From positions 1-44,935 of the IMG/VR virus record IMGVR_UViG_3300047313_000006: a stretch of 44,935 nt of DNA; one strand, written 5' to 3'. Position 1 is the stretch's first letter. Every line of letters begins with the position of its first letter. A model generated the notes under the pieces. That model ran no database searches. It was not told the DNA's origin and saw nothing but the letters and a program-made list of their open reading frames with translations. Below are positions 3,143-44,729 of the stretch, piece after piece. The stretch comes from a virus (Duplodnaviria > Caudoviricetes). Position numbers and translations under genes: made by a program.

Positions 3143-3591
3143 GACCACCCATTCTCGATCCGGGGCGGCTGGCGCCGCGTATCTCGGAAGCCTCCATCCA
3201 GGAAACCTGCTCGCAATTCCTAGAGCTCGACGGCTGGCGCCGCATCCGCACAGACCTGAAGCATCTCCGCGGCATGGGAGTGCAAGAGAAGGGCATGGCG
3301 GACGATCTATTCATCCGATATTGGACGGGCTGTATCAATCAAATCGCCATGAAGCCCCCGTATGAATCTTGGGGACAAATCCTCTGGATCGAGTGGAAGC
3401 GAGAACGCGGCGGCAACGGCAAGCGCGCATTATTTACTAAGGCAGAGAAGGCCAAAATACATCAGGTCGCGTGGATCGAACAGGAGCGGGCTCGCGGCGC
3501 ATTGGTGCTTTTGGCTGGCGTGGACTTCCCGGCCACGATAGATGGCTTTCAAGAATTCTACAGGCAGTCTGGATTGAGGCGCAGGGTATGA
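3139..3591 (+). CDS. VRR-NUC / PD-(D/E)XK nuclease
   Basis: SEASIQ, KGMADD, WIEWKR and HQVAWIEQERARG motifs. Confidence 0.7.
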   Translation: MRPPILDPGRLAPRISEASIQETCSQFLELDGWRRIRTDLKHLRGMGVQEKGMADDLFIRYWTGCINQIAMKPPYESWGQILWIEWKRERGGNGKRALFTKAEKAKIHQVAWIEQERARGALVLLAGVDFPATIDGFQEFYRQSGLRRRV

Positions 3592-4256
3592 ATCCGTATT
3601 ATGAGCACGCGGGGATTACGATTTACCACGGGGATTGCCGTGAAGTGCTGCCGACGCTGCCGAAGGTGGATCTGGTGCTGACGGACCCGCCATATGGAGT
3701 GGGCGCTTCAAGTGGAACGGGGAAATATGGGCGATTGCGTGCCGCCTCGAGCGTCCACCCGGAATGGGATAGCCTTGCAGTGGACCTGTCTCATTTGCCG
3801 GAAGTTCCAACTTGCATATGGGGCGGTAACTACTTCAATCTAAGGCCATCGAGGATGTTTCTTCTATGGGACAAAGGAGCTGGCTTCGCTGGGCGTGACT
3901 TTGCAGAATGTGAGCAAGCCTGGTGCTCTTGGGATGGGAATGCCAAGATATTTCGCCGCGATCCATTAGCCTCTCGAGATTATATCGGGAAGCAGCATCC
4001 AACCGAGAAACCAATCCCGCTTATGGAATGGTGCTTGCGGCAGTTCCCTTGCGGCGGCGTTGTGGTCGACCCCTACAGTGGCGGAGGCAGCACGCTAATC
4101 GCCGCCAAGCGCGCTGGATTGCCAGCAATCGGTATCGAGATCGAGGAGCGCTACTGCGAGATCGCAGCCAAACGCCTCTCGCAAGAGGTATTCGAGTTCG
4201 AGCGGCGGGCGCATGAAACCGCCCCGGTGAACGAAGAACTGGACTTCGCTGGATAG
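3588..4256 (+). CDS. N6-adenine/N4-cytosine DNA methyltransferase (beta class)
   Basis: IYHGDC, LTDPPYG, HPTEKP, VVDPYSGGGST and IGIEIEERYCEIA motifs. Confidence 0.93.
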   Translation: MNPYYEHAGITIYHGDCREVLPTLPKVDLVLTDPPYGVGASSGTGKYGRLRAASSVHPEWDSLAVDLSHLPEVPTCIWGGNYFNLRPSRMFLLWDKGAGFAGRDFAECEQAWCSWDGNAKIFRRDPLASRDYIGKQHPTEKPIPLMEWCLRQFPCGGVVVDPYSGGGSTLIAAKRAGLPAIGIEIEERYCEIAAKRLSQEVFEFERRAHETAPVNEELDFAG

Positions 4257-4259
4257 CTT

Positions 4260-4610
4260 ATGGAACAGCAAGACCTATTCCACATCGGCCGCGATCCTGA
4301 AGTAGTCCGTAAGGAATCCCAGGACGCCATCCAGCAGGTAGAGGATAACGCCGAAGATGACTGGAAAGACCTGGCCCTGGAAGCGGTCCATGTGACCTGT
4401 ATGCAACGGGAAAGCTTCATCTCGGACGATGTATGGGTATGCGGCGATCTGCCGTCGACGCGCGAGGATCGAGCGCTGGGCCCGGTTCTCATGAAGGCCG
4501 CCAAGCTCAAATGGTGCGAGAAAACAGACAGGGTGAGGCCATCGCTGCGATCGCACATGTCGGGTAAGCCGGTCTGGAAGTCTTTGATCTGGAGGGCAAT
4601 TAATACGTGA
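4260..4610 (+). CDS. Hypothetical protein (possible winged-helix)
   Basis: Clean ORF in the operon; RALGPVL and VWKSLI motifs. Confidence 0.7.
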   Translation: MEQQDLFHIGRDPEVVRKESQDAIQQVEDNAEDDWKDLALEAVHVTCMQRESFISDDVWVCGDLPSTREDRALGPVLMKAAKLKWCEKTDRVRPSLRSHMSGKPVWKSLIWRAINT

Positions 4611-5482
4611 TAGATCTCGTTTCAATAATAAGTGCTCCGCCTCGGAAGAGGCTCGCGCGCGTGTTCCCCCGCATAACGAAGGCGACTCCGCAAGATGATA
4701 TGGCTTTCTTTGGGCCACCAGATCTATTTGTTGAGGCCGATGAGATCCACGTGAGCGTTACCTTCACTGCCGATATCCCCAAAGCGGAAGCGCTAGCAGA
4801 AGATTGGAAGCATGTGGCGCCAGTTAAGGTTAGCGGAAAAGCCTACGGGAATGTGGGGTTGGAATTTACCCCTGGTCGTTACATTAAGCATGGATACACA
4901 TTCACATCTCGCGGATGCCCGCGGCGTTGCTGGTTCTGTTCGGTATGGAAAACTCAAGGCAAGGCTACGCCTATCCCGATAACGGATGGTTGGAACATTC
5001 TGGATGATAATCTGCTGGCATGCCCAGAGCCGCATGTTCGCGCCGTATTCGATATGCTGCGGCGCCAAGGGCGGCAGATCGAGTTTACCGGGGGGCTTGA
5101 GGCGCTAGCTCTTCAGGATTATCAGGTTGGGCTACTTGCGGATCTCCGGCCACGCCCTAGTTGCTTTTTTGCGTATGACCCCGGCGATCCATTCGAGACA
5201 TTAAAGAGTGCAGCAGACCGCATGATTGAAGCGGGATTTACCGCGTGTTCGCACCGCCTGCGCGCCTATGTCCTAATTGGCTATCCCAAAGATACCTTCG
5301 CGGAAGCTACCAAGCGGCTAAACCAGATGCTCGGTATTGGGTTTACCCCACACGCGATGCTCTGGCAACCGGAGACGCCTAGCGCCGAAAAGCATCGACC
5401 AGCTCCTGAGTGGCGCACTTTTCAACGGCAATGGGCGCGTCCGGCGATTATTCATGCGACCCGCCATGGAACCGCGGCATGA
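4607..5482 (+). CDS. Radical SAM family protein
   Basis: TSRGCPRRCWFC (CxxxCxxC), LDDNLLA, GGLEA and YVLIGY motifs. Confidence 0.85.
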   Translation: MIDLVSIISAPPRKRLARVFPRITKATPQDDMAFFGPPDLFVEADEIHVSVTFTADIPKAEALAEDWKHVAPVKVSGKAYGNVGLEFTPGRYIKHGYTFTSRGCPRRCWFCSVWKTQGKATPIPITDGWNILDDNLLACPEPHVRAVFDMLRRQGRQIEFTGGLEALALQDYQVGLLADLRPRPSCFFAYDPGDPFETLKSAADRMIEAGFTACSHRLRAYVLIGYPKDTFAEATKRLNQMLGIGFTPHAMLWQPETPSAEKHRPAPEWRTFQRQWARPAIIHATRHGTAA

Positions 5483-5766
5483 GTCCACAGCCCGCGTGGG
5501 ACCCCGAATACCCGACTCCAGGCGCTCTCGCTTACCGCGACGGCTTCATACAGGGGGCCGCTGTTGGTGGCTTGCGCGACATACCCGGAGCCATTCTCTC
5601 GCGGGCGATAGACAGAGCCATAGAGCGCGGAGCAACGTCCAGGCGTGCCGGGATGGCTTTCGCGGACGTTTATTTTCGCATCCAGATGCGCCGAGAACCG
5701 CGCGGAGGGTACGGGGACGCTATAAATTATCTAATGGCTTGCTTCAATCGGGAGCTTGAAGTATGA
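5479..5766 (+). CDS. Hypothetical helical protein
   Basis: ATGA-coupled to the radical SAM gene; ends AINYLMACFNRELEV. Confidence 0.55.
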   Translation: MSPQPAWDPEYPTPGALAYRDGFIQGAAVGGLRDIPGAILSRAIDRAIERGATSRRAGMAFADVYFRIQMRREPRGGYGDAINYLMACFNRELEV

Positions 5767-5773
5767 TGGTGTT

Positions 5774-6128
5774 GTCCCAATCGCGTCAAGGGGTGTTACC
5801 GGAAACGGGCACCCCATCCGATCCGGGGCCGGATTGCACTGCGAGTGGGAACCATTCGACAATTCGCGTTTTGCGTGTCGCTTCGCGGGGAAACCACGTG
5901 GGGAGCGATGCGGATTTGCGTCTACCAGGGCACTGCTATACGACGCAGCCAGCTTTACAAGTCGGAAGGCGAGCAGTCGGATGTCTGAGAAATCACGTTA
6001 AGTTGCGACTTAGCCGTGGCTGCCTCAGAGACGCCACGGACGCGATTGGGGCCGGGACGGAAGTGAGGGGCATAACCCAAGAGCGCAGAAGATTGCTGTG
6101 CTGCTGCATGGGCAATCCTTCTGCGCTT
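5774..6128 (+). ncRNA. Putative large structured RNA of unknown class
   Basis: 14-bp closing helix 5774-5787/6039-6052 encloses seven hairpins, three capped by GAAA. A further long hairpin lies at 6081-6128. G-U pairs favour the + strand. Confidence 0.65.
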
Positions 6129-6154
6129 CCAAAGCCGAACCAAAGTGGAAGCAT

Positions 6155-6343
6155 ATGCCTGAATTACTGAATGCCTTCCCTGAATACCCGGATTGCATGT
6201 TCTGCTGTGATAAGGGCGTTACATTCGATGAATTTAACGGCTATCGGTTCTGCACGTGCCCAGCAGGAGTTTCTGCGGCGCGGTTGGGGCCGGCGATTAT
6301 CGATGAGGCCAATGAGGCCAGAAAGCGGGTACTGGCAGGATGA
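6155..6343 (+). CDS. Small Zn-ribbon protein
   Basis: CMFCCDKG...FCTCPAG motif; stop overlaps the next ATG. Confidence 0.6.
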   Translation: MPELLNAFPEYPDCMFCCDKGVTFDEFNGYRFCTCPAGVSAARLGPAIIDEANEARKRVLAG

Positions 6344-6555
6344 ATGAGCGCGAAAAAGAATTAGCGCGGCGTTTCTATATCTCCTTTCTTAGCTATAACT
6401 TGGGGATCGGCATGCAGTACGCATACAAAACGTATCTCGAAAAGGATCAGGATGTTGGGGCCATGTGGCACTATCTTGCAAAGGCAGCGGATGAGATCCA
6501 CGCAATGAACATGGAAGAAGCCTCGAAAAGACTTACGGAGAAGGTGATTCAGTGA
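6340..6555 (+). CDS. Hypothetical protein
   Basis: Start and stop both overlap neighbouring genes. Confidence 0.65.
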   Translation: MNEREKELARRFYISFLSYNLGIGMQYAYKTYLEKDQDVGAMWHYLAKAADEIHAMNMEEASKRLTEKVIQ

Positions 6556-7352
6556 GCTCGAGCCAGCCACAGACATCGGGAAAGGAACAAACCCTGGGGA
6601 GGGAGTTTCAGAAGCCGGTTACCTGTGGCTCGCTGGCGCCCAAGCCGCTCTGCATCGACCTATTCTGCGGCCTCGGTGGTTGGTCCGAAGGCTTCCTTGC
6701 AGAAGGCTATGACTGCATCGGCTTCGATGTCGAGCGCCATGACTACGGCTCGGGCGGCTATCCCGGCCAACTTGTCCTTCAGGACGTTCTGACGCTCCAC
6801 GGCTCGCAGTTCCGCAATGCCGCGGTGATTGTGGCGTCCCCACCGTGTCAAGCGTACAGCTATCGTGCAATGCCCTGGAAACGCGCCAAGGCACTGCCGC
6901 CGCCCAGCAATGAGCTATTTGAGGCGTGCTTCCGCATCGCCAGAGAAGCCGGCCATGTGCCGCTGGTAGTCGAGAACGTCAAAGGCGCGCAGCCCTGGGT
7001 AGGCCGAGCGAAATGGCACTACGGAAGTTTCTATCTGTGGGGTGATGTGCCGGTGCTGATGCCCAAGCAGCGGCCAAACTTGAACTTTGGGAAATTACGG
7101 AAATGTGAGTTTTGTGGCTATGAGTTCCCGGACGAGTTAGGGCGCTACGGCTGTCCAAATTGCTGCGGTGAAGGTCTACAGGGTAATAAACAACCAGGTC
7201 TGCGTGGGCACGCATGGTTCGACGATGGAATCGCCCGGTTCGGCTCACAAGACCCGCGCCGCAAAGCCGCCTCTGCCCAGATAGCCAAGATCCCGCTGCC
7301 GCTCAGCCAGCACATCGCCAGAGTCTACAAGCCCGAAAATCGTGTAGAATAA
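6552..7352 (+). CDS. C5-cytosine DNA methyltransferase-like protein (short form) with a Zn-finger insert
   Basis: Motif I IDLFCGLGG, motif IV SPPCQ, motif VI VENV; insert CEFC...CPNC. Confidence 0.85.
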   Translation: MSSSQPQTSGKEQTLGREFQKPVTCGSLAPKPLCIDLFCGLGGWSEGFLAEGYDCIGFDVERHDYGSGGYPGQLVLQDVLTLHGSQFRNAAVIVASPPCQAYSYRAMPWKRAKALPPPSNELFEACFRIAREAGHVPLVVENVKGAQPWVGRAKWHYGSFYLWGDVPVLMPKQRPNLNFGKLRKCEFCGYEFPDELGRYGCPNCCGEGLQGNKQPGLRGHAWFDDGIARFGSQDPRRKAASAQIAKIPLPLSQHIARVYKPENRVE

Positions 7353-13137: not shown

Positions 13138-14160
13138 ATGGCCCAAGACGCTAATACGGTCGTGGATTCGTCGCCCGCGGCAGAGGAAGTACAAGATTCC
13201 GGGATAGACCTGGCGGACTTGAGTGCGGAGCAGTATGACGCATTCATGCTTCACGGGACGATGCCCGAGGCGAAACCGGCTGAAACCGCCACCCAGCCAC
13301 CAAAAACCATTGAGACGCCCGAAGAATCGGGAAGGTCCAAAGGGAACCAGGAAGCAGGCAAGGGGAAAGGCGTTGAGGCTCGAATTGAGCAACTCGACAG
13401 CAAAATCCAGGAGCTTCAGGCTCGACTTGCCCGCAAAGCCGATCTAGAGCGGCAACTGGATTCGGATAGTGGCGCAAAGACGGCCCCGCCCCCCGTTACC
13501 GAAACCAAATCCGCTGAACTGAAAGCCCCGGTTAAACCTCGCGTCGAGGAATTCAAGACGTGGGACGAATATGAGGCCGCCAAAGACAAATACTCTGAGG
13601 ATTTAACGGATTACAGAGTATCTAAGGCAATTCAGGAAGATCGAGCACAACGGGCGGAAGAAGCTAAAAAGCAGCAGCAGGAATCCGAAGGCAAGCAGGC
13701 AGCGGAGAAGTGGAATAAGCAGGTTGAATCCGCCGCTAAAGAGCATTCGGACTGGAACGATGTCATTGCTCCGGTTAAGGATCTGGTGGGTAAAGACCCA
13801 AGATTCCAAGCTGGCGCGAGTTTCCTGCTCGAATCCGAGGCCGGTGCAGAGATTCTGTACCACTTGGGATCAAACCCGGATGAAGCCAGCCAGATTGCAG
13901 CGATGTCGCCTATAAAGCAAATCGCAGCTCTGGCGCGAATTGAACTCTCCCTTACGAAGCCTGCCCAAAGCGTGAAAACGCCCCCTGGACCCAAAAAGGT
14001 AACCGAGACGCCGCCACCACCTAGCGAGCTTGCTGGCAGAAACCAGTTGGCTCCGGACCCGTTGGCTGCTGCTCGTGAAGCCGACGATATCGAGGAAATC
14101 TTTCGCTTAGCGAATGCCAAAGATATCGCCGACATAGCCGCAGGGAAGCGCCGACGCTAA
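13138..14160 (+). CDS. Capsid scaffolding protein
   Basis: Charged coiled coil with KPRVEEFKTWDEYEAA and GAEILYHLGSNPDEA; between portal and coat; GAGGAG RBS. Confidence 0.85.
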   Translation: MAQDANTVVDSSPAAEEVQDSGIDLADLSAEQYDAFMLHGTMPEAKPAETATQPPKTIETPEESGRSKGNQEAGKGKGVEARIEQLDSKIQELQARLARKADLERQLDSDSGAKTAPPPVTETKSAELKAPVKPRVEEFKTWDEYEAAKDKYSEDLTDYRVSKAIQEDRAQRAEEAKKQQQESEGKQAAEKWNKQVESAAKEHSDWNDVIAPVKDLVGKDPRFQAGASFLLESEAGAEILYHLGSNPDEASQIAAMSPIKQIAALARIELSLTKPAQSVKTPPGPKKVTETPPPPSELAGRNQLAPDPLAAAREADDIEEIFRLANAKDIADIAAGKRRR

Positions 14161-14194
14161 TTTAGCCCGGATTCCCTTGCAAAAGGGAATTTGA

Positions 14195-15442
14195 GTGGCT
14201 AATACATTTCAATTTGTAAACTGGATCGGGCAGGAAGCGCTCCGCATCCTCGTCAACCGTCTGGCAATCGCCGATGGTTTCAACACTTCCTACAACAAAG
14301 AGTATAAGAAGGACTTCGCGGTCGGGGAGACGGTTCGCATCCCTTATCCGGTGCGTGGTCTGATCCGCGACGGGTTCACCTACCAGCCCCAGCCGGTCGA
14401 CGTGCGCCAGACCACCATCACGGTGGACCAGCCCTTCGGTATGGATTTCGAATACGACTCAATTGAGCAAGCTTTGAAGATGGGCAAGGGCGAAGAGTGG
14501 ATTCGGGAGACCATTCTCGATCCCTACATGAGCCAGATTGCTCAGGAGATGGATTCTCGCGCCTCATTGTTCGCGTATCGGCATTCGAACAATATCGTCG
14601 GCTCTCTCAAGACCACGCCAACGGATACCAGTTTGGCCGGCTCCGCCCGCCAGCGCATGATTGAGAACGCCTGCCCGCCGGCGGAATACAAAATGGTGAT
14701 GACGCCCGCGGCAATGACCTCCGTCGTCAACGGGACGCTGACCCAATTCAACCCGCAGGACGCGATTTCCAAAGCGTTCAAAGAAGGGTACTACGGCTCA
14801 GCCCGCGGCTTCACCTGGTTTGAGTCGATGTCGCTCTATACGCACACCGCAGGCAATTGGCAGACGCCGGCCAGCGTCACGGTGAACACCTCCGGGCAGT
14901 CTGGCACCACCCTGCTGGTGAACTGCACCTCGGGCGACACCTTCAACGATGGCGATGTGTTCAATATCGCCGCCGTCAATAACGTGAACCCATCAACTCG
15001 CCGCTCGACCGGCACTCTGCGCCAATTCCGTATCGTTGGCGATCAGGTAGCAAGCGCCTCGACCATCACGCTGAATATCTCCGGTGGAGACGGTCAAGGA
15101 ATTGTCGGCCCTGGCGACCAGTATCAGAATGTTGACGCCTTGCCGCTGAACACGGCGCTCTTGACCTTGTTCCCCGGAACAGTGACCCCGAGCGCGTCGA
15201 CCGGGACTCAGGGACTCGCCTTCAGCCGAGACGCCTTCGCAATGGTTGGGGTCAATCTCATGATGCCGAAAGCGGTTGAAATGTCGGTCATGAAACGCGA
15301 TCCCAAGACCGGAATCGCAATCAGCTTGATCCGGGCATTTGATCCGACGCAGCGCCGCATGGTAAACCGCTTCGATACCCTTATCGGGTTCGGAGAGCTT
15401 TACTCGAATGCCTGCTCGGTGCGGGTCTTGAGTAGCACATAA
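14195..15442 (+). CDS. Major capsid protein, P22 coat gp5 family
   Basis: MANTF start, VGETVRIPYP, LAFSRDAFAMV and RFDTLIGFGEL motifs; synteny. Confidence 0.93.
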   Translation: MANTFQFVNWIGQEALRILVNRLAIADGFNTSYNKEYKKDFAVGETVRIPYPVRGLIRDGFTYQPQPVDVRQTTITVDQPFGMDFEYDSIEQALKMGKGEEWIRETILDPYMSQIAQEMDSRASLFAYRHSNNIVGSLKTTPTDTSLAGSARQRMIENACPPAEYKMVMTPAAMTSVVNGTLTQFNPQDAISKAFKEGYYGSARGFTWFESMSLYTHTAGNWQTPASVTVNTSGQSGTTLLVNCTSGDTFNDGDVFNIAAVNNVNPSTRRSTGTLRQFRIVGDQVASASTITLNISGGDGQGIVGPGDQYQNVDALPLNTALLTLFPGTVTPSASTGTQGLAFSRDAFAMVGVNLMMPKAVEMSVMKRDPKTGIAISLIRAFDPTQRRMVNRFDTLIGFGELYSNACSVRVLSST

Positions 15443-21400: not shown

Positions 21401-21603
21401 AGCTCAACTCCGATATGCAACGCATGGTGTTCGGATTCTGCCTACTCACGATCCTGGCGTCTCTCGCGGCGGCTATCGCGCTCGGGCATGTAGAAGAAAA
21501 AACCAGTTATGGGTTGATGCCGCTGTTGACTACGCTCTCAACGCTGGCGGGGGCCTTTGCTCAATGGGCTTTCAGCCGCAAGGATAAGGACGATGGCGAA
21601 TAA
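21397..21603 (+). CDS. Small two-TM membrane protein (holin-like topology)
   Basis: Two hydrophobic segments and a charged C-terminus. Confidence 0.6.
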   Translation: MKLNSDMQRMVFGFCLLTILASLAAAIALGHVEEKTSYGLMPLLTTLSTLAGAFAQWAFSRKDKDDGE

Positions 21604-21622
21604 ACATTGTATACTTTTACGC

Positions 21623-21895
21623 ATGGCAAACAATCGGCTTTACATTTATGACGAGGTGAGCGGGGACAGGATTCTAATTGCAAAATCTTTACCTCTTTGG
21701 CGCTTGGTGATTGGGTTGGGGGACAACCGGGTAACCGAGGATGCGGAAGAGGGGTTTGAGGCCCTGAGTTCTTGGCTTACGGCGCATGATGTAAACGCGG
21801 CGGCTCGTGGCCGAGGGAGCGAACTAGTAATTTTGGATGAAGCTGCCTTAGCGGATCGCAATAAACAAAACGTAAATGCCATCTCCAGCCCTTAG
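21623..21895 (+). CDS. Hypothetical protein, moron-like insert
   Basis: Lower GC; TATACT at 21610-21615 just before the ATG. Confidence 0.55.
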   Translation: MANNRLYIYDEVSGDRILIAKSLPLWRLVIGLGDNRVTEDAEEGFEALSSWLTAHDVNAAARGRGSELVILDEAALADRNKQNVNAISSP

Positions 21896-40731: not shown

Positions 40732-40989
40732 ATGCCCGCGTGGAGCGTTGACCCCATGAGCTCAGGAGCCTTTCAGATAATCCTTACCTGTGTGTTCGCT
40801 GGGGCTGCATTAGCAAACTACATAGTTCTGCTCTCTATCAATCTAAAAATCAGTCTGTTAAACGCCGCAATCCGGGAATGGTCGCGCGAGAATTTCGCAG
40901 AAAAACCACACGTCGACAGTGTTCAGGCGCACCTTATCAGCGTGGATCGTCGGGTCCAGATCATCGAAGCCAAAATCCATATTACTTAG
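40732..40989 (+). CDS. Single-TM plus coiled-coil membrane protein
   Basis: N-terminal hydrophobic helix; last gene of the rightward arm. Confidence 0.6.
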   Translation: MPAWSVDPMSSGAFQIILTCVFAGAALANYIVLLSINLKISLLNAAIREWSRENFAEKPHVDSVQAHLISVDRRVQIIEAKIHIT

Positions 40990-41539
40990 GTGGCCAGACT
41001 GGATCAGACGGCTTCCATCCCTCTGGTTTGGCGCGGAGAGCGCCAGCGGCGTCGATCATTTCCTCGTATTCTTTTTGGCCCAGTAGCGCGATGCGTGAAA
41101 AGTGCGTCCACTTGCTTTCGTCGTAGTCCAAGTCGAGATTGGAGCCCGTCACTAGATGGCCCGGATCATCGATGTTTATGAGCACGCAGGTTCCGTAATC
41201 CTCGTGAAGCTCTGAGATTGGTCGCCATTTCTGGCGTTCCCGCGCCTCGGCCAACTGCTCTTGTAGCGAGTGACGTTCCCCTTTATTTGGTAATTGCATC
41301 GCCATCTCGACCAACTGCGATTCGAGCGCCTCACTTATTTCTTTGTGCTCCACTGCCAGCTTTGTCATTACATCTAGTCGTGATTCGAGCGCCGCTGTCG
41401 CATTTAGCATTGAGACGATGCGAGAAGCATCTTCCGGCGTGTGACACTGGAACATCGGTCTGTCTCCTTCATATACGTTCAGTGGAACCTTGCCCCCAAC
41501 ACGCCACAATCCCTTGAGCAGTATCGTATCAGTCTCCAT
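40982..41539 (-). CDS. Hypothetical modular early protein
   Basis: WRVGGKVPLNVY domain, coiled coil, then a WRPISE...WTHF (DUF551-like) domain. Confidence 0.7.
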   Translation of the reverse strand: METDTILLKGLWRVGGKVPLNVYEGDRPMFQCHTPEDASRIVSMLNATAALESRLDVMTKLAVEHKEISEALESQLVEMAMQLPNKGERHSLQEQLAEARERQKWRPISELHEDYGTCVLINIDDPGHLVTGSNLDLDYDESKWTHFSRIALLGQKEYEEMIDAAGALRAKPEGWKPSDPVWPPK

Positions 41540-41714
41540 TGCGATTCTCCCAATTCTCAGCCTCTTTCAGTTTTGCCTTTAAGTTCGTCACTTCGGATTC
41601 GAGCGCCGCTTTTTGGCTCCGCATTTCGTCGATTGTGCACCACGGGCAATCTGCGCGACATACCACTCCCGCGTGTCTGCAAATTCCATCGCGCGAGACT
41701 GTGTTTTGGTTCAT
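41529..41714 (-). CDS. Hypothetical protein
   Basis: CRH...CPWC plus coiled coil; coupled to neighbours. Confidence 0.6.
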   Translation of the reverse strand: MNQNTVSRDGICRHAGVVCRADCPWCTIDEMRSQKAALESEVTNLKAKLKEAENWENRNGD

Positions 41715-41953
41715 CGCTCTACCTTTGTTATGAATCTTGTGAAGTGGGCTTTTGAAATTGATTGTGGCCTATGATCAAAAAGTACGTCCACTACCCAATC
41801 GCCGCCTGCGTAAATTGTAGACCGATAAAAGTAGACCTTCATCACTCTGGCCGCCTTAAAGAACTGGGAGTTATCGCCTGAATCGGTCCCGCCCCAAAGA
41901 ACCGGATCGAAAACGCTCACACGGTCGCCAATTTTAATCTTGTCGTCGCTCAT
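41711..41953 (-). CDS. Hypothetical SH3-like small protein
   Basis: IKIGDRVSV motif; GGAGG RBS. Confidence 0.65.
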   Translation of the reverse strand: MSDDKIKIGDRVSVFDPVLWGGTDSGDNSQFFKAARVMKVYFYRSTIYAGGDWVVDVLFDHRPQSISKAHFTRFITKVER

Positions 41954-42231
41954 TCCCCCTCCTCCGTCGAAGTCCCCGCACCTGTTTTCGCTTCCACCGA
42001 AGTCTTGTGGGATGTCGCCTCGCCGTTTTCAGGGTCCATGCCGTTGCACTGCGCACACAATAGGGCGCGCGGTGGGTTAGCGGAATAGTCAAGCGGAGGA
42101 GGAACGCCGCGCCCGCACTTTGTCATTACCTTGGCCACCTTGGCATGGTTCAGAGTGAATCCCGTTTCTCCGGCGTTAAGGTGCCACCGCGCACCTCCGT
42201 CATGCCGTACATATCGCTGGTGTGGCTTCAT
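41950..42231 (-). CDS. Hypothetical protein
   Basis: WH...CG...CAQC Zn pattern; ATGA overlaps. Confidence 0.6.
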   Translation of the reverse strand: MKPHQRYVRHDGGARWHLNAGETGFTLNHAKVAKVMTKCGRGVPPPLDYSANPPRALLCAQCNGMDPENGEATSHKTSVEAKTGAGTSTEEGE

Positions 42232-42293
42232 TCTTTCCCTCCCGCTTCCACCGGGCTATCCGGTGCTGTTTCGATTAATTGCCACTCGCTCAT
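42228..42293 (-). pseudogene. 21-aa remnant resembling the start of DUF551-like genes (MSEWQLIETAP...)
   Basis: Translated by hand; GGAGG RBS and ATGA overlaps on both sides. Confidence 0.5.
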
Positions 42294-42514
42294 CCCTTGA
42301 CCTCCTGTGGATCTGCGTGCGCCGCGCACCATGCTTTGTTGGCAGAAATCGTGCGGGTGCAGTCTTGGTTGGCGCAGCGCTGGGTCCCGTATCCTCTACG
42401 GATTCGCGGCTTGCCGTCTGGGGTAGGTTCCGGCTTCGGTAGTAGCTTGGGCAACTCACCAGCCATCGCCAGCAACGCTCCGATTTCACCGAACCCCAGT
42501 ATGCTTCGCCTCAT
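42290..42514 (-). CDS. Hypothetical protein
   Basis: CANQDC...WCAAH motif; coupled to neighbours. Confidence 0.55.
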   Translation of the reverse strand: MRRSILGFGEIGALLAMAGELPKLLPKPEPTPDGKPRIRRGYGTQRCANQDCTRTISANKAWCAAHADPQEVKG

Positions 42515-42783
42515 CCCCGCTCCCTCCCGCCGTCTTCGCCTGATTGAGCGGTGTATTGGGCGAGTGCGGCGTCACACATTTGGACAGCTTCCTTGGTGGC
42601 TGCGCTTTGGTGCACGTACATGCGATCGCGGGCGCGCTGACACGCCTCTGCCAGCGCCCGACTTACTTCCCGCTCGGCATTCAGTACCAGCACAATACAG
42701 TCCCGCCAGTGGCCGCCGTTAGAATGCAGGCACCAATGACAAACATCGGGAGGTAGAGTCGTCCGTGGGGTCCTAGCGGTCAT
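42511..42783 (-). CDS. Hypothetical protein
   Basis: CHWC...GHWRDC motif; ATG at 42783 overlaps the upstream stop. Confidence 0.55.
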   Translation of the reverse strand: MTARTPRTTLPPDVCHWCLHSNGGHWRDCIVLVLNAEREVSRALAEACQRARDRMYVHQSAATKEAVQMCDAALAQYTAQSGEDGGRERG

Positions 42784-42878
42784 CCCCTTGTCCTTTTCTT
42801 CCAAATCCACAAGCCAATAACCGGGAGTGAGTATACCATCACAATCACAGCATCCAACATAAGATCAAGCAGTTTCAT
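42780..42878 (-). CDS. 32-aa single-TM peptide (MKLLDLMLDAVIVMVYSLPVIGLWIWKKRTRG)
   Basis: Translated by hand; AAAGGA RBS; stop overlaps the next ATG. Confidence 0.55.
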   Translation of the reverse strand: MKLLDLMLDAVIVMVYSLPVIGLWIWKKRTRG

Positions 42879-42888
42879 GGTGTCCTTT

Positions 42889-42926
42889 TAGAAAATGGGG
42901 GCGACCAATGGCAGTAGATCGCCCCC
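42889..42926 (-). terminator. Intrinsic terminator-like hairpin in the leftward operon
   Basis: Minus strand GGGGGCGATC-10 nt-GGTCGCCCCC followed by ATTTTCT; the plus strand also has TTTT after the stem. Confidence 0.65.
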
Positions 42927-43706: not shown

Positions 43707-44241
43707 TGGCCTCGAATACGTTTGGCGGCATTTCTTCAACCGGGGGCCGTTGTTTGGGCTGTGAGATTGGAGCCGGCACCGGAGCTGCAGTCTTGCGATC
43801 CTTGACACGCACATACCCATCCATCACCAGTGGCGGCATGCCCCGCGGGAGCTTCATTACAGCACCCAAATTGGCGAAGGTGCCGCCCTGACTTCCCTTA
43901 TTGTGGACAATCGAAATCATGCATGGCGCGCCGACGACCGTCTCTAAATCGAAAGCTACTTCCTCATCGAAAGTGAAGTCTCGGCCGCGCCAGCTCACCA
44001 GATGCAATCGCAACTTGGCTTTTTCATCGAGAGAGGCGGTATAGTCTTGCTTGATCAGATACCGCTTGCCATCTGAGTCGGTTTCATCTATCTGCCAAAC
44101 CAAGCGGACGACATGGCGCTCCCGCTCCTTGCCGTTCCAGGTGCTCGTCTGCTTGCCGAGGTCTATTTCATCAACGCACACGGCAGAAAATGTACCCTCG
44201 GGGGCGGTGGGGAATCTTTCATCTGGCTTCTTAACAATCAT
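43684..44241 (-). CDS. Putative single-stranded DNA-binding (OB-fold) protein
   Basis: APEGTFSAVCVDEIDLGKQ, SLDEKAKLR and VGAPCMISIVH motifs; acidic tail DDDVPF. Confidence 0.75.
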   Translation of the reverse strand: MIVKKPDERFPTAPEGTFSAVCVDEIDLGKQTSTWNGKERERHVVRLVWQIDETDSDGKRYLIKQDYTASLDEKAKLRLHLVSWRGRDFTFDEEVAFDLETVVGAPCMISIVHNKGSQGGTFANLGAVMKLPRGMPPLVMDGYVRVKDRKTAAPVPAPISQPKQRPPVEEMPPNVFEANDDDVPF

Positions 44242-44729
44242 GGTAGTCTTTCCTCCTGTTTTTTGGGACCCGTTTTGTATTTGGTCCGGGTTAGAATTTC
44301 GGGAGTACTCAACCCCCGATAGAATCTGTCCTGCAAACTCCCATAAGGTATCGCAAGATGGCGTGACCATTCGGCCATGTTCATCGTCAGGCCATCATGT
44401 GTGAGTTTGATATTACTACGCCTGTTGCGAGATTGTTCTTCGCGCGTGGCCCAGACACAATTTGAAGGCTCATAGTTTCCATCATTGTTTTCGCGCTCTA
44501 TCGAATGCTTAGGAGTGGGCCGCTTGCCCATATCCTCCAAGAACCTTGAGAATGAATCTCTCCACTCAGCGCAAACCGTTATCCCACGGCCGCCGTAGTC
44601 CTTGAATAGCGGATACTCTGGGTTGAGGCACCTGCGCTTCATTGCGCACCATACGGCATATTCAGGCGTGCGGGATAAATTGCCCTGCGCTCCAACCCGA
44701 GGCCCGTTCTTTGGGTAGCCCTTGGGCAT
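44238..44729 (-). CDS. HNH homing-endonuclease-like protein
   Basis: YAVWCAMKRRC, YGGRGITVCAEW and SIERENNDGNYEPSNCVWAT motifs. Confidence 0.9.
   Translation of the reverse strand: MPKGYPKNGPRVGAQGNLSRTPEYAVWCAMKRRCLNPEYPLFKDYGGRGITVCAEWRDSFSRFLEDMGKRPTPKHSIERENNDGNYEPSNCVWATREEQSRNRRSNIKLTHDGLTMNMAEWSRHLAIPYGSLQDRFYRGLSTPEILTRTKYKTGPKKQEERLP

Follow-up and report, generated by a model that had tools for sequence, protein, structure and literature searches.

Few large, ornate RNA classes have been described from bacteria and phages, and the functions of three of them, GOLLD, ROOL and raiA RNA, are still not known. In the accessible parts of the papers cited here, GOLLD and ROOL are presented as large phage or prophage RNAs that often lie near tRNA genes and assemble into cages by means of kissing loops, and some of these intermolecular kisses were first seen as covariation (PMC12286853). 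ROOL averages 581 nt, has three pseudoknots and multi-stem junctions and occurs in phages and prophages near tRNAs (PMC5737381), and a mycobacterial tRNA cluster contains GOLLD together with an HNH gene (PMC6582537). Large complex bacterial RNAs are often ribozymes (PMC5737381). Here we compare with these systems a structured RNA of ~381 nt at positions 5774-6154 of the window, a complete virus record 44,935 bases (44.9 kb) in length; the RNA, its predicted promoter and the two adjoining ORFs lie on the + strand.

The window represents a P22-like phage with a 127-nt terminal repeat and encodes terminase, a P22-like portal, scaffold and coat protein, two DNA methylases, a radical-SAM protein and an HNH nuclease. 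No integrase, polymerase, reverse transcriptase, initiator or repressor was recognised among the window proteins scanned, a set that leaves out several small ORFs at 41500-42900. The phage probably infects soil bacteria. Four rhizosphere studies contain more than half of the sampled words of 5500-6400 (possible source run excluded), and one capsid relative (56% identity) is labelled Gemmatimonadaceae. With 17 ORFs taken as genes between 1262 and 9358, a 388-nt gap opens at 5767-6154 while all other gaps measure at most 15 nt, so that this is indeed, as the original prediction had it, the largest stretch of the operon that holds no credible gene.

On the + strand, 5770-6155 has a folding energy of -169.8 kcal/mol (z -4.74), which none of 100 shuffles matched, versus z -2.01 for the - strand, which 3 of 100 shuffles matched. 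For the first 280 nt of the element, z was -4.71 in one run of 60 shuffles and -4.05 in another. This strand bias (z -4.7 vs -2.01), together with the covarying crossed pairings described below, upholds the earlier view that the structure is one of + strand RNA and not a DNA cruciform. In a coarse scan of 160 tiles with 8 shuffles each, the element was split in two and lay outside the top 12; rechecked with 60 shuffles, the five best tiles gave z -1.5 to -2.9. Across the window, none of all 4227 Rfam families reached its gathering score, and at E up to 10 the region 5600-6300 had one chance match only (P36, 15.9 bits vs 36). The Rfam models for self-cleaving ribozymes, RNase P, tmRNA, SRP and 6S RNA were unmatched and ARAGORN found 0 tRNA or tmRNA genes in the window, which agrees with the earlier reading that no tRNA, tmRNA or RNase P signature is present. 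We regard it as nearly certain that the element is a real structured RNA.

Homologues came from two kinds of search. Public contigs aligned to the region yielded five partial copies in watershed run X11 and related ones in X12 of the same study, and lake run X15 held one partial copy of the RNA; runs X13 and X14 had no contig on the element, where X10 is without coverage. A pattern of conserved blocks gave seven metagenome matches, of which two are true copies and five are unrelated. One of the two, L028, is a complete copy in a 42-kb contig (nhmmer E 9e-24), and the other, L033, is cut at the 5' end and sits in a locus of only 1.8 kb (E 2e-27). Pairwise identity among the window, L028 and L033 is 60-64%, and the two relatives fold with z -2.33 (L028, with flanks) and -3.31 (L033). 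Five viral-contig patterns produced 14, 4, 0, 8 and 1 matches and a GTDB pattern seven, none of them homologous. Three blastn searches returned only 23-25-nt chance matches in phages and nothing in plasmids, and 80 capsid-related loci searched with a profile yielded no match below E 0.03. Model R2, which covers the 3' 165 positions only and was searched with a positive control, matched none of 83 viral records from phages whose capsid or terminase is related (50 + 33; 13 of them at least 90% complete), and 0 of 5, 0 of 141 and 0 of 141 genomes from two phyla to which the host may not belong. The RNA family looks rare in the collections scanned. A close capsid relative (69% identity; L046, 1-2400) carries another gene block before the small terminase and is unmatched by the RNA model.

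The gap is overlapped by an open frame of 135 codons (5763-6170). Differences among the copies fall on its three codon positions 88, 86 and 88 times, all three + frames are interrupted by stops in each homologue, relatives show 1-nt indels at 6064, 6067 and 6094, and the frame has no protein-family match. As the substitutions are indifferent to codon position, the frame is not a conserved gene. With this frame unconserved, folding that beats shuffles and no Rfam match, the original prediction of a novel structured non-coding phage RNA is supported.

An unbiased stem search over pairings possible in all three aligned copies returned three stems of at least 6 bp, termed X, K2 and Y. Pseudoknot X (5932-5937/5972-5977) forms all 6 pairs in each of the three copies, five of them double-changed, although its end pair is broken in one X11 contig. 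It begins in the loop of hairpin S1 (5917-5922/5942-5947), which forms 6, 5 and 6 of its 6 pairs in the three copies with two double changes and in which a U-A pair is replaced by C-G in X15. Helix P6 (5948-5950/5968-5970) retains all 3 pairs in the three copies with one double change, and pseudoknot Y (5959-5964/6006-6011), which begins in the P6 loop, retains 6 of 6 with one double and one single change. Just before the 3' strand of Y lies a linker (5996-6005) of near-invariant columns. Hairpin K1 (5978-5982/5992-5997, with one bulge) can form in all three copies; two double changes in an X11 contig also fit it but are not independent, as the same changes helped to find K1. Hairpin K2 (6014-6020/6033-6039) has 7 of 7 pairs in three copies and three double changes, plus one more in the X11 contig. 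The K1 loop (5984-5989) pairs with the K2 loop (6024-6029) through six Watson-Crick pairs in all three copies, which makes this pairing, Z, a loop-loop kiss; five of its six pairs are changed on both sides in the hand-registered alignment, and two further double changes occur in the X11 contig. As X begins in the S1 loop and Y in the P6 loop, S1, X, Y, Z and K2 cross as a chain. Comparison of the copies shows the predicted core chain, S1, X, P6, Y and the K1-K2 kiss Z, to be conserved.

Within the 35-pair structure, which was derived from the same three sequences it was counted on, 12 pairs are double-changed, a number reached by none of 500 shuffles. Column-shuffled alignments put through the same stem search never (0 of 150) reached five double changes in a single stem or the observed total of nine; the number of stems alone (three) was attained in 4 of 150. 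Pooled, two further contigs add 8 compensatory, 3 consistent and 2 broken pairs. In the X11 contig, 12 of 21 listed differences (27 in total) fall in modelled pairs and amount to 5 compensatory, 1 consistent and 1 broken, and in the X15 contig 9 of 16 differences do so, giving 3, 2 and 1. As there are only three long copies, one of them cut at the 5' end, the statistics are thin and the 5' domain is less settled. No symmetric palindromic loop is conserved across all three copies. In a more diverged X11 contig (6019-6080), the 3' strand of Y is changed and the preceding linker kept, so that compensating changes would be expected at 5959-5964.

The fold that is conserved is not the one of minimum energy. 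Every helix of the original prediction can be formed where it had been drawn, and its hairpins at 5790-5815 (H1) and 6081-6128 are kept in relatives, but that drawing missed the three crossing pairings with the strongest covariation. Set against the X11 contig, the helices listed earlier show one compensatory, two consistent and one broken pair, the broken one lying in the inner TGA-GAAA-TCA hairpin. This hairpin, which loses 1 of its 3 pairs in the relative, gives way to kiss Z. The proposed closing helix, P1 (5774-5787/6039-6052), is fully paired in the window (14 of 14, one G-U; probability 1.0) but only partly conserved: in L028, 8 of 14 pairs are in register, the outer five are kept without covariation and the inner part is lost. 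The five 5' bases of P1 can alternatively pair with 6054-6058 in both the window and L028.

The remainder of the 5' domain was compared across two copies only. Hairpin H1, with a GAAA loop, forms all 7 pairs in both the window and L028, one of them double-changed. Two predicted hairpins with a CACTG linker between them, H2 (5819-5836) and H3 (5842-5858), occupy 5819-5858, and L028, aligned by eye, has shorter hairpins and an identical CACTG at this place. The long hairpin H4 (5874-5912) has a variable loop; X15 shows two compensatory, two consistent and one broken pair in it, and L028 and L033 have hairpins at the same place. Two candidate pairings join the 5' domain to distant positions, 5862-5868/6041-6047 (6 of 7 pairs in the window, 5 of 7 in L033) and 5837-5840/6144-6147 (4 of 4 in the window, 3 of 4 in L028).

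The 3' domain (6048-6141), the part of the RNA most conserved in sequence, comprises a helix at 6054-6060/6135-6141 with a 2x2 purine loop, a hairpin at 6068-6078 and the long hairpin at 6081-6128. As the letters are nearly invariant, the helix and the 3-bp hairpin at 6068-6078 are predicted only; in the variable long hairpin, 4 of 6 pairs are double-changed. A conserved tail (6142-6154; 11 of 13 positions invariant in three copies) abuts the ATG at 6155, and in L028 this tail can pair with the 5' domain. The earlier suggestion that GCTTCCA and TGGAAGC pair next to this ATG fails in the two homologues, which retain only 5 and 4 of the 7 pairs. At positions 6065 and 6147, the window and L033 each have two Gs where L028 has two Cs; a pair between these positions is impossible, and a tertiary contact or a shared partner possibly accounts for the pattern.

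The whole RNA is ~381 nt long in the window and ~402 nt in L028. The tail conserved in all three aligned copies, plus a loose contig end, sets its 3' end at 6154; the span proposed originally, 5774-6152, thus contains the element but stops short of the conserved end. A predicted promoter at 5739-5767 consists of TTGCTT (5739-5744), a 17-nt spacer and TATGAT (5762-5767), the latter overlapping the stop codon of the upstream ORF and sitting 7 nt ahead of G5774, a spacing that would put the 5' end of the RNA at 5774. L028 likewise has TATGAT 7 nt ahead of its 5' G, without a clear -35, and another TATGAT just before its tRNA cluster; TATRAT occurs 12 times in the window. As the predicted promoter scores under the promoter-scan threshold, it is a putative one. 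A scan of the window found no terminator 3' of the RNA. Nor did we find antisense targets: the longest match to the remaining genome is 11 nt, below shuffles (mean 12.2), and matches to the L028 tRNAs do not exceed 9 nt.

The surroundings of the RNA differ among the three loci. In the window, it lies among small ORFs without family match, between methylase genes. The small ORF upstream (5479-5766; listed from 5410) begins at an ATG that overlaps the radical-SAM stop. It has no Pfam, PHROG or Atlas match and is unmatched in the L028 and L033 loci, and its protein as a query found no relative. The 62-codon ORF downstream (6155-6343), which diverged X11 and X12 contigs cover, has no family match and is also unmatched in those two loci. 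The genes for an N6/N4 and a C5 DNA methylase and the radical-SAM gene that flank the RNA at 3471-7352 suggest a DNA-modification cluster. In L028, three tRNA genes (Thr CGT, Arg TCT and Ile TAT) and an HNH gene lie within ~1.1 kb of the RNA, and the ORF directly upstream is oppositely oriented; as this gene points away, the RNA needs its own promoter there. The tRNA trio stands behind a TG-N-TATGAT promoter-like site, followed by the HNH gene (L028 2634-2912). In L033, a Lar-family gene lies downstream. Both relatives have phage-type genes, tRNA genes occur in one of the three loci and not in the window, and within the fetched flanks no protein is common to the window and the two other loci, although the next gene after the RNA is on the same strand in all three. 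As the neighbours differ in every locus, the arrangement is what a self-contained module under its own promoter would show, and the RNA is probably accessory, present in some phages and at differing genome positions.

Among described RNAs, GOLLD is similar in several respects. It is a large, highly paired phage RNA with pseudoknots and kissing loops and a function that is not known, its 3' part is better conserved and its 5' part variable, and it sometimes lies near tRNA or HNH genes, as far as the accessible parts of PMC12286853 and PMC6582537 describe it. The tRNA and HNH setting of L028 is that described for ROOL and GOLLD in what is accessible of PMC5737381 and PMC6582537. GOLLD differs in having ~800 nt with separate 5' and 3' domains, against 381 and 402 nt here as counted from the predicted 5' end, and four invariant motifs of our RNA are absent from the printed GOLLD sequence. 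RF02032, the GOLLD 3' domain model (416 positions, cut-off 150 bits), gave 0 candidates in the genome and none at E up to 10, in a search that had no true GOLLD copy as positive control (0 of 121 genomes). Whereas GOLLD and ROOL form protein-free homo-oligomeric cages, a covarying 6-bp kiss, known from sequence only, is what our RNA has to set beside them. With ROOL it shares three pseudoknots, multi-stem junctions and a phage setting, here with tRNA genes close by in one of the three loci, going by the accessible part of PMC5737381, but it is shorter than the ROOL average of 581 nt and, in three copies, has long invariant blocks instead of 10 highly conserved bases. The ROOL model RF03087 was unmatched in the window and L028, both at gathering score and at E up to 10.

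raiA motif RNA (RF03072) has a compact pseudoknotted core with a look-alike loop pseudoknot in the accessible parts of PMC12968392 and PMC10861870, but is chromosomal, ~200 nt long and monomeric. RF03072 (cut-off 101.3 bits) had 0 matches here at E up to 10 while the control matched in 38 of 101 genomes, a tally that includes the unpublished genome G261. A profile of 15 raiA RNAs, namely those of 25 fetched loci that a motif filter oriented, the other 10 being dropped, found nothing at E 10 in the three copies. Alignment to raiA RNA was equalled by 4, 11 and 71 of 100 shuffles, with L028 and L033 within the shuffles and the window marginal, and neither the profile nor inspection by eye shows an evident counterpart here of the conserved P1 bulges, P3a, PK2 or E-loop of raiA RNA. 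As model, profile and alignment all fail to support it, the raiA resemblance stays a lead. D12-methyl RNA (RF02950) resembles the L028 K2 hairpin and the G-rich block that follows it (22.5 bits, E 0.063), but the cut-off is 57 bits, 26 model positions are skipped, 64 positions are involved against ~380, and the window is unmatched. This partial match occupies L028 3966-4010, and the K2 hairpin may be a shared module. Group I and group II introns differ in that their Rfam families are unmatched and that the element has no exons and no interrupted gene. No reverse transcriptase or IscB/TnpB partner of a retron, DGR or OMEGA RNA was seen among the window proteins scanned (small ORFs at 41500-42900 excepted) or the 13 L028 and L033 proteins.

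We found no description of this RNA in the literature, although two large files of PMC10690425 and the PMC5737381 supplement, which lie outside the search, may bear on its novelty. The searchable supplements of PMC10085705 and PMC10690425 contain none of its motifs, and the accessible part of 10.64898/2026.09.22.753630 does not describe it. Overall, this is an undescribed family of ornate phage RNA whose fold is new and whose kind is familiar, and its covariation is unusually clear given the small number of copies.

We favour a reading, with a probability of about 0.5, in which the element is a conserved, non-coding, multiply pseudoknotted RNA of ~380 nt that probably has its own promoter and acts in trans, in the manner of GOLLD, ROOL and raiA RNA. 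Host RNA polymerase would start at G5774 and the transcript would then fold; as no terminator was found, the 3' end may be generated through trimming of a read-through transcript. The interlocked core would serve as a compact, long-lived, protein-free scaffold acting in trans, the 6-bp kiss Z may connect adjacent molecules in a ring or cage, and a host factor could be bound and sequestered during infection by a surface made of the invariant 3' domain and tail. Covariation fits a kiss within one molecule as well as one between molecules, and raiA RNA is a monomer. It is possible, though doubtful, that the RNA is the founding member of a new class of functional phage RNA in which the three interlocked long-range pairings form a new catalytic core or a new self-assembling cage, perhaps a rearranged raiA core used against hosts.

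Several other readings draw on the same observations. A cis-acting 5' leader that governs downstream genes through antitermination, a possible role already named in the original prediction, or through translation control, in the manner of the HK022 put RNA, would account for a predicted promoter just 5' of the RNA with no terminator after it in the window, for same-strand genes next in all three loci, and for a location 1.2 kb ahead of the packaging and virion genes in the window and ahead of virion-type genes in L028. However, same-strand neighbours are expected anyway in phage operons, the downstream genes differ and the next start lies 0, ~50 or 135 nt away, the pairing beside the ATG is not conserved, and model R2 finds the RNA in 0 of the 83 related phage records; we consider a leader rather unlikely. 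A new ribozyme that cuts, joins or processes RNA, with an active site formed by the linker 5996-6005 and the invariant 3' domain, would explain why invariant unpaired bases lie between covarying helices. The order of X 5' strand, Y 5' strand, X 3' strand, hairpin, purine-rich linker, Y 3' strand and hairpin also bears a loose resemblance to a group I core. Yet the 5' strand of Y lies in a loop and lacks a bulge, unlike the guanosine site of group I introns, and neither the window nor L028 matches any ribozyme or intron family at E up to 10. The element also interrupts no gene, as the upstream ORF stops at 5766 and the next starts at 6155. The ribozyme role put forward in the original prediction is, with known families unmatched and no gene interrupted, unlikely.

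Still less probable is a distant, rearranged raiA relative that acts as a phage mimic or competitor of the host RNA. Both RNAs contain a CG..AAG linker and a short GCC/GGC helix, the loop of which pairs with a strand further downstream that is similar in sequence in the two RNAs. A joint descriptor matches all three copies and 7 of 15 raiA RNAs, and it occurs 17 times in 2.16 Mb of phage DNA. This descriptor, however, was written after both RNAs had been seen, and RF03072, profile and alignment tests lend no support, which leaves the mimic improbable. The replication primer, another role proposed at the outset, or an origin RNA would suit a promoter-led structured RNA in a genome without a recognised initiator or polymerase. 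But cumulative GC skew turns at ~1165 and 13795 and does not switch at the structured RNA, no replication gene is recognised nearby, the position varies from phage to phage, and none of the 83 related records matches even though every one of these phages has to replicate; a primer or origin is very improbable. Hardly credible, finally, is that 5763-6170 encodes a protein or that the structure is a DNA cruciform or due to chance: 135 codons do stay open across the gap, but there is no codon pattern, the homologues bring stops and indels, a family match is lacking, and the strand bias in folding and the covarying crossed pairings argue for RNA.

The element would add a distinct fold to the few ornate classes known, test how common cage-building is and probe the role of an accessory RNA in a small soil phage. 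At ~380 nt it is small enough for direct synthesis, probing and cryo-EM, and natural compensatory variants map two pseudoknots and the kiss. Should the raiA look-alike prove true, a widespread bacterial orphan RNA would be tied to a phage mimic.

Elsewhere in the window, the coding strand switches at 1234-1262 and 40982-40989, and no replication protein, integrase or repressor is recognised among the scanned proteins of the genome. Two of the tiles from the coarse folding scan, 14001-14280 and 21561-21840, gave z -2.9 and -2.6 on recheck, and the first covers the scaffold-coat junction. A free-standing HNH endonuclease gene lies on the - strand at 44238-44729 (PHROG 3377, E 3e-53).
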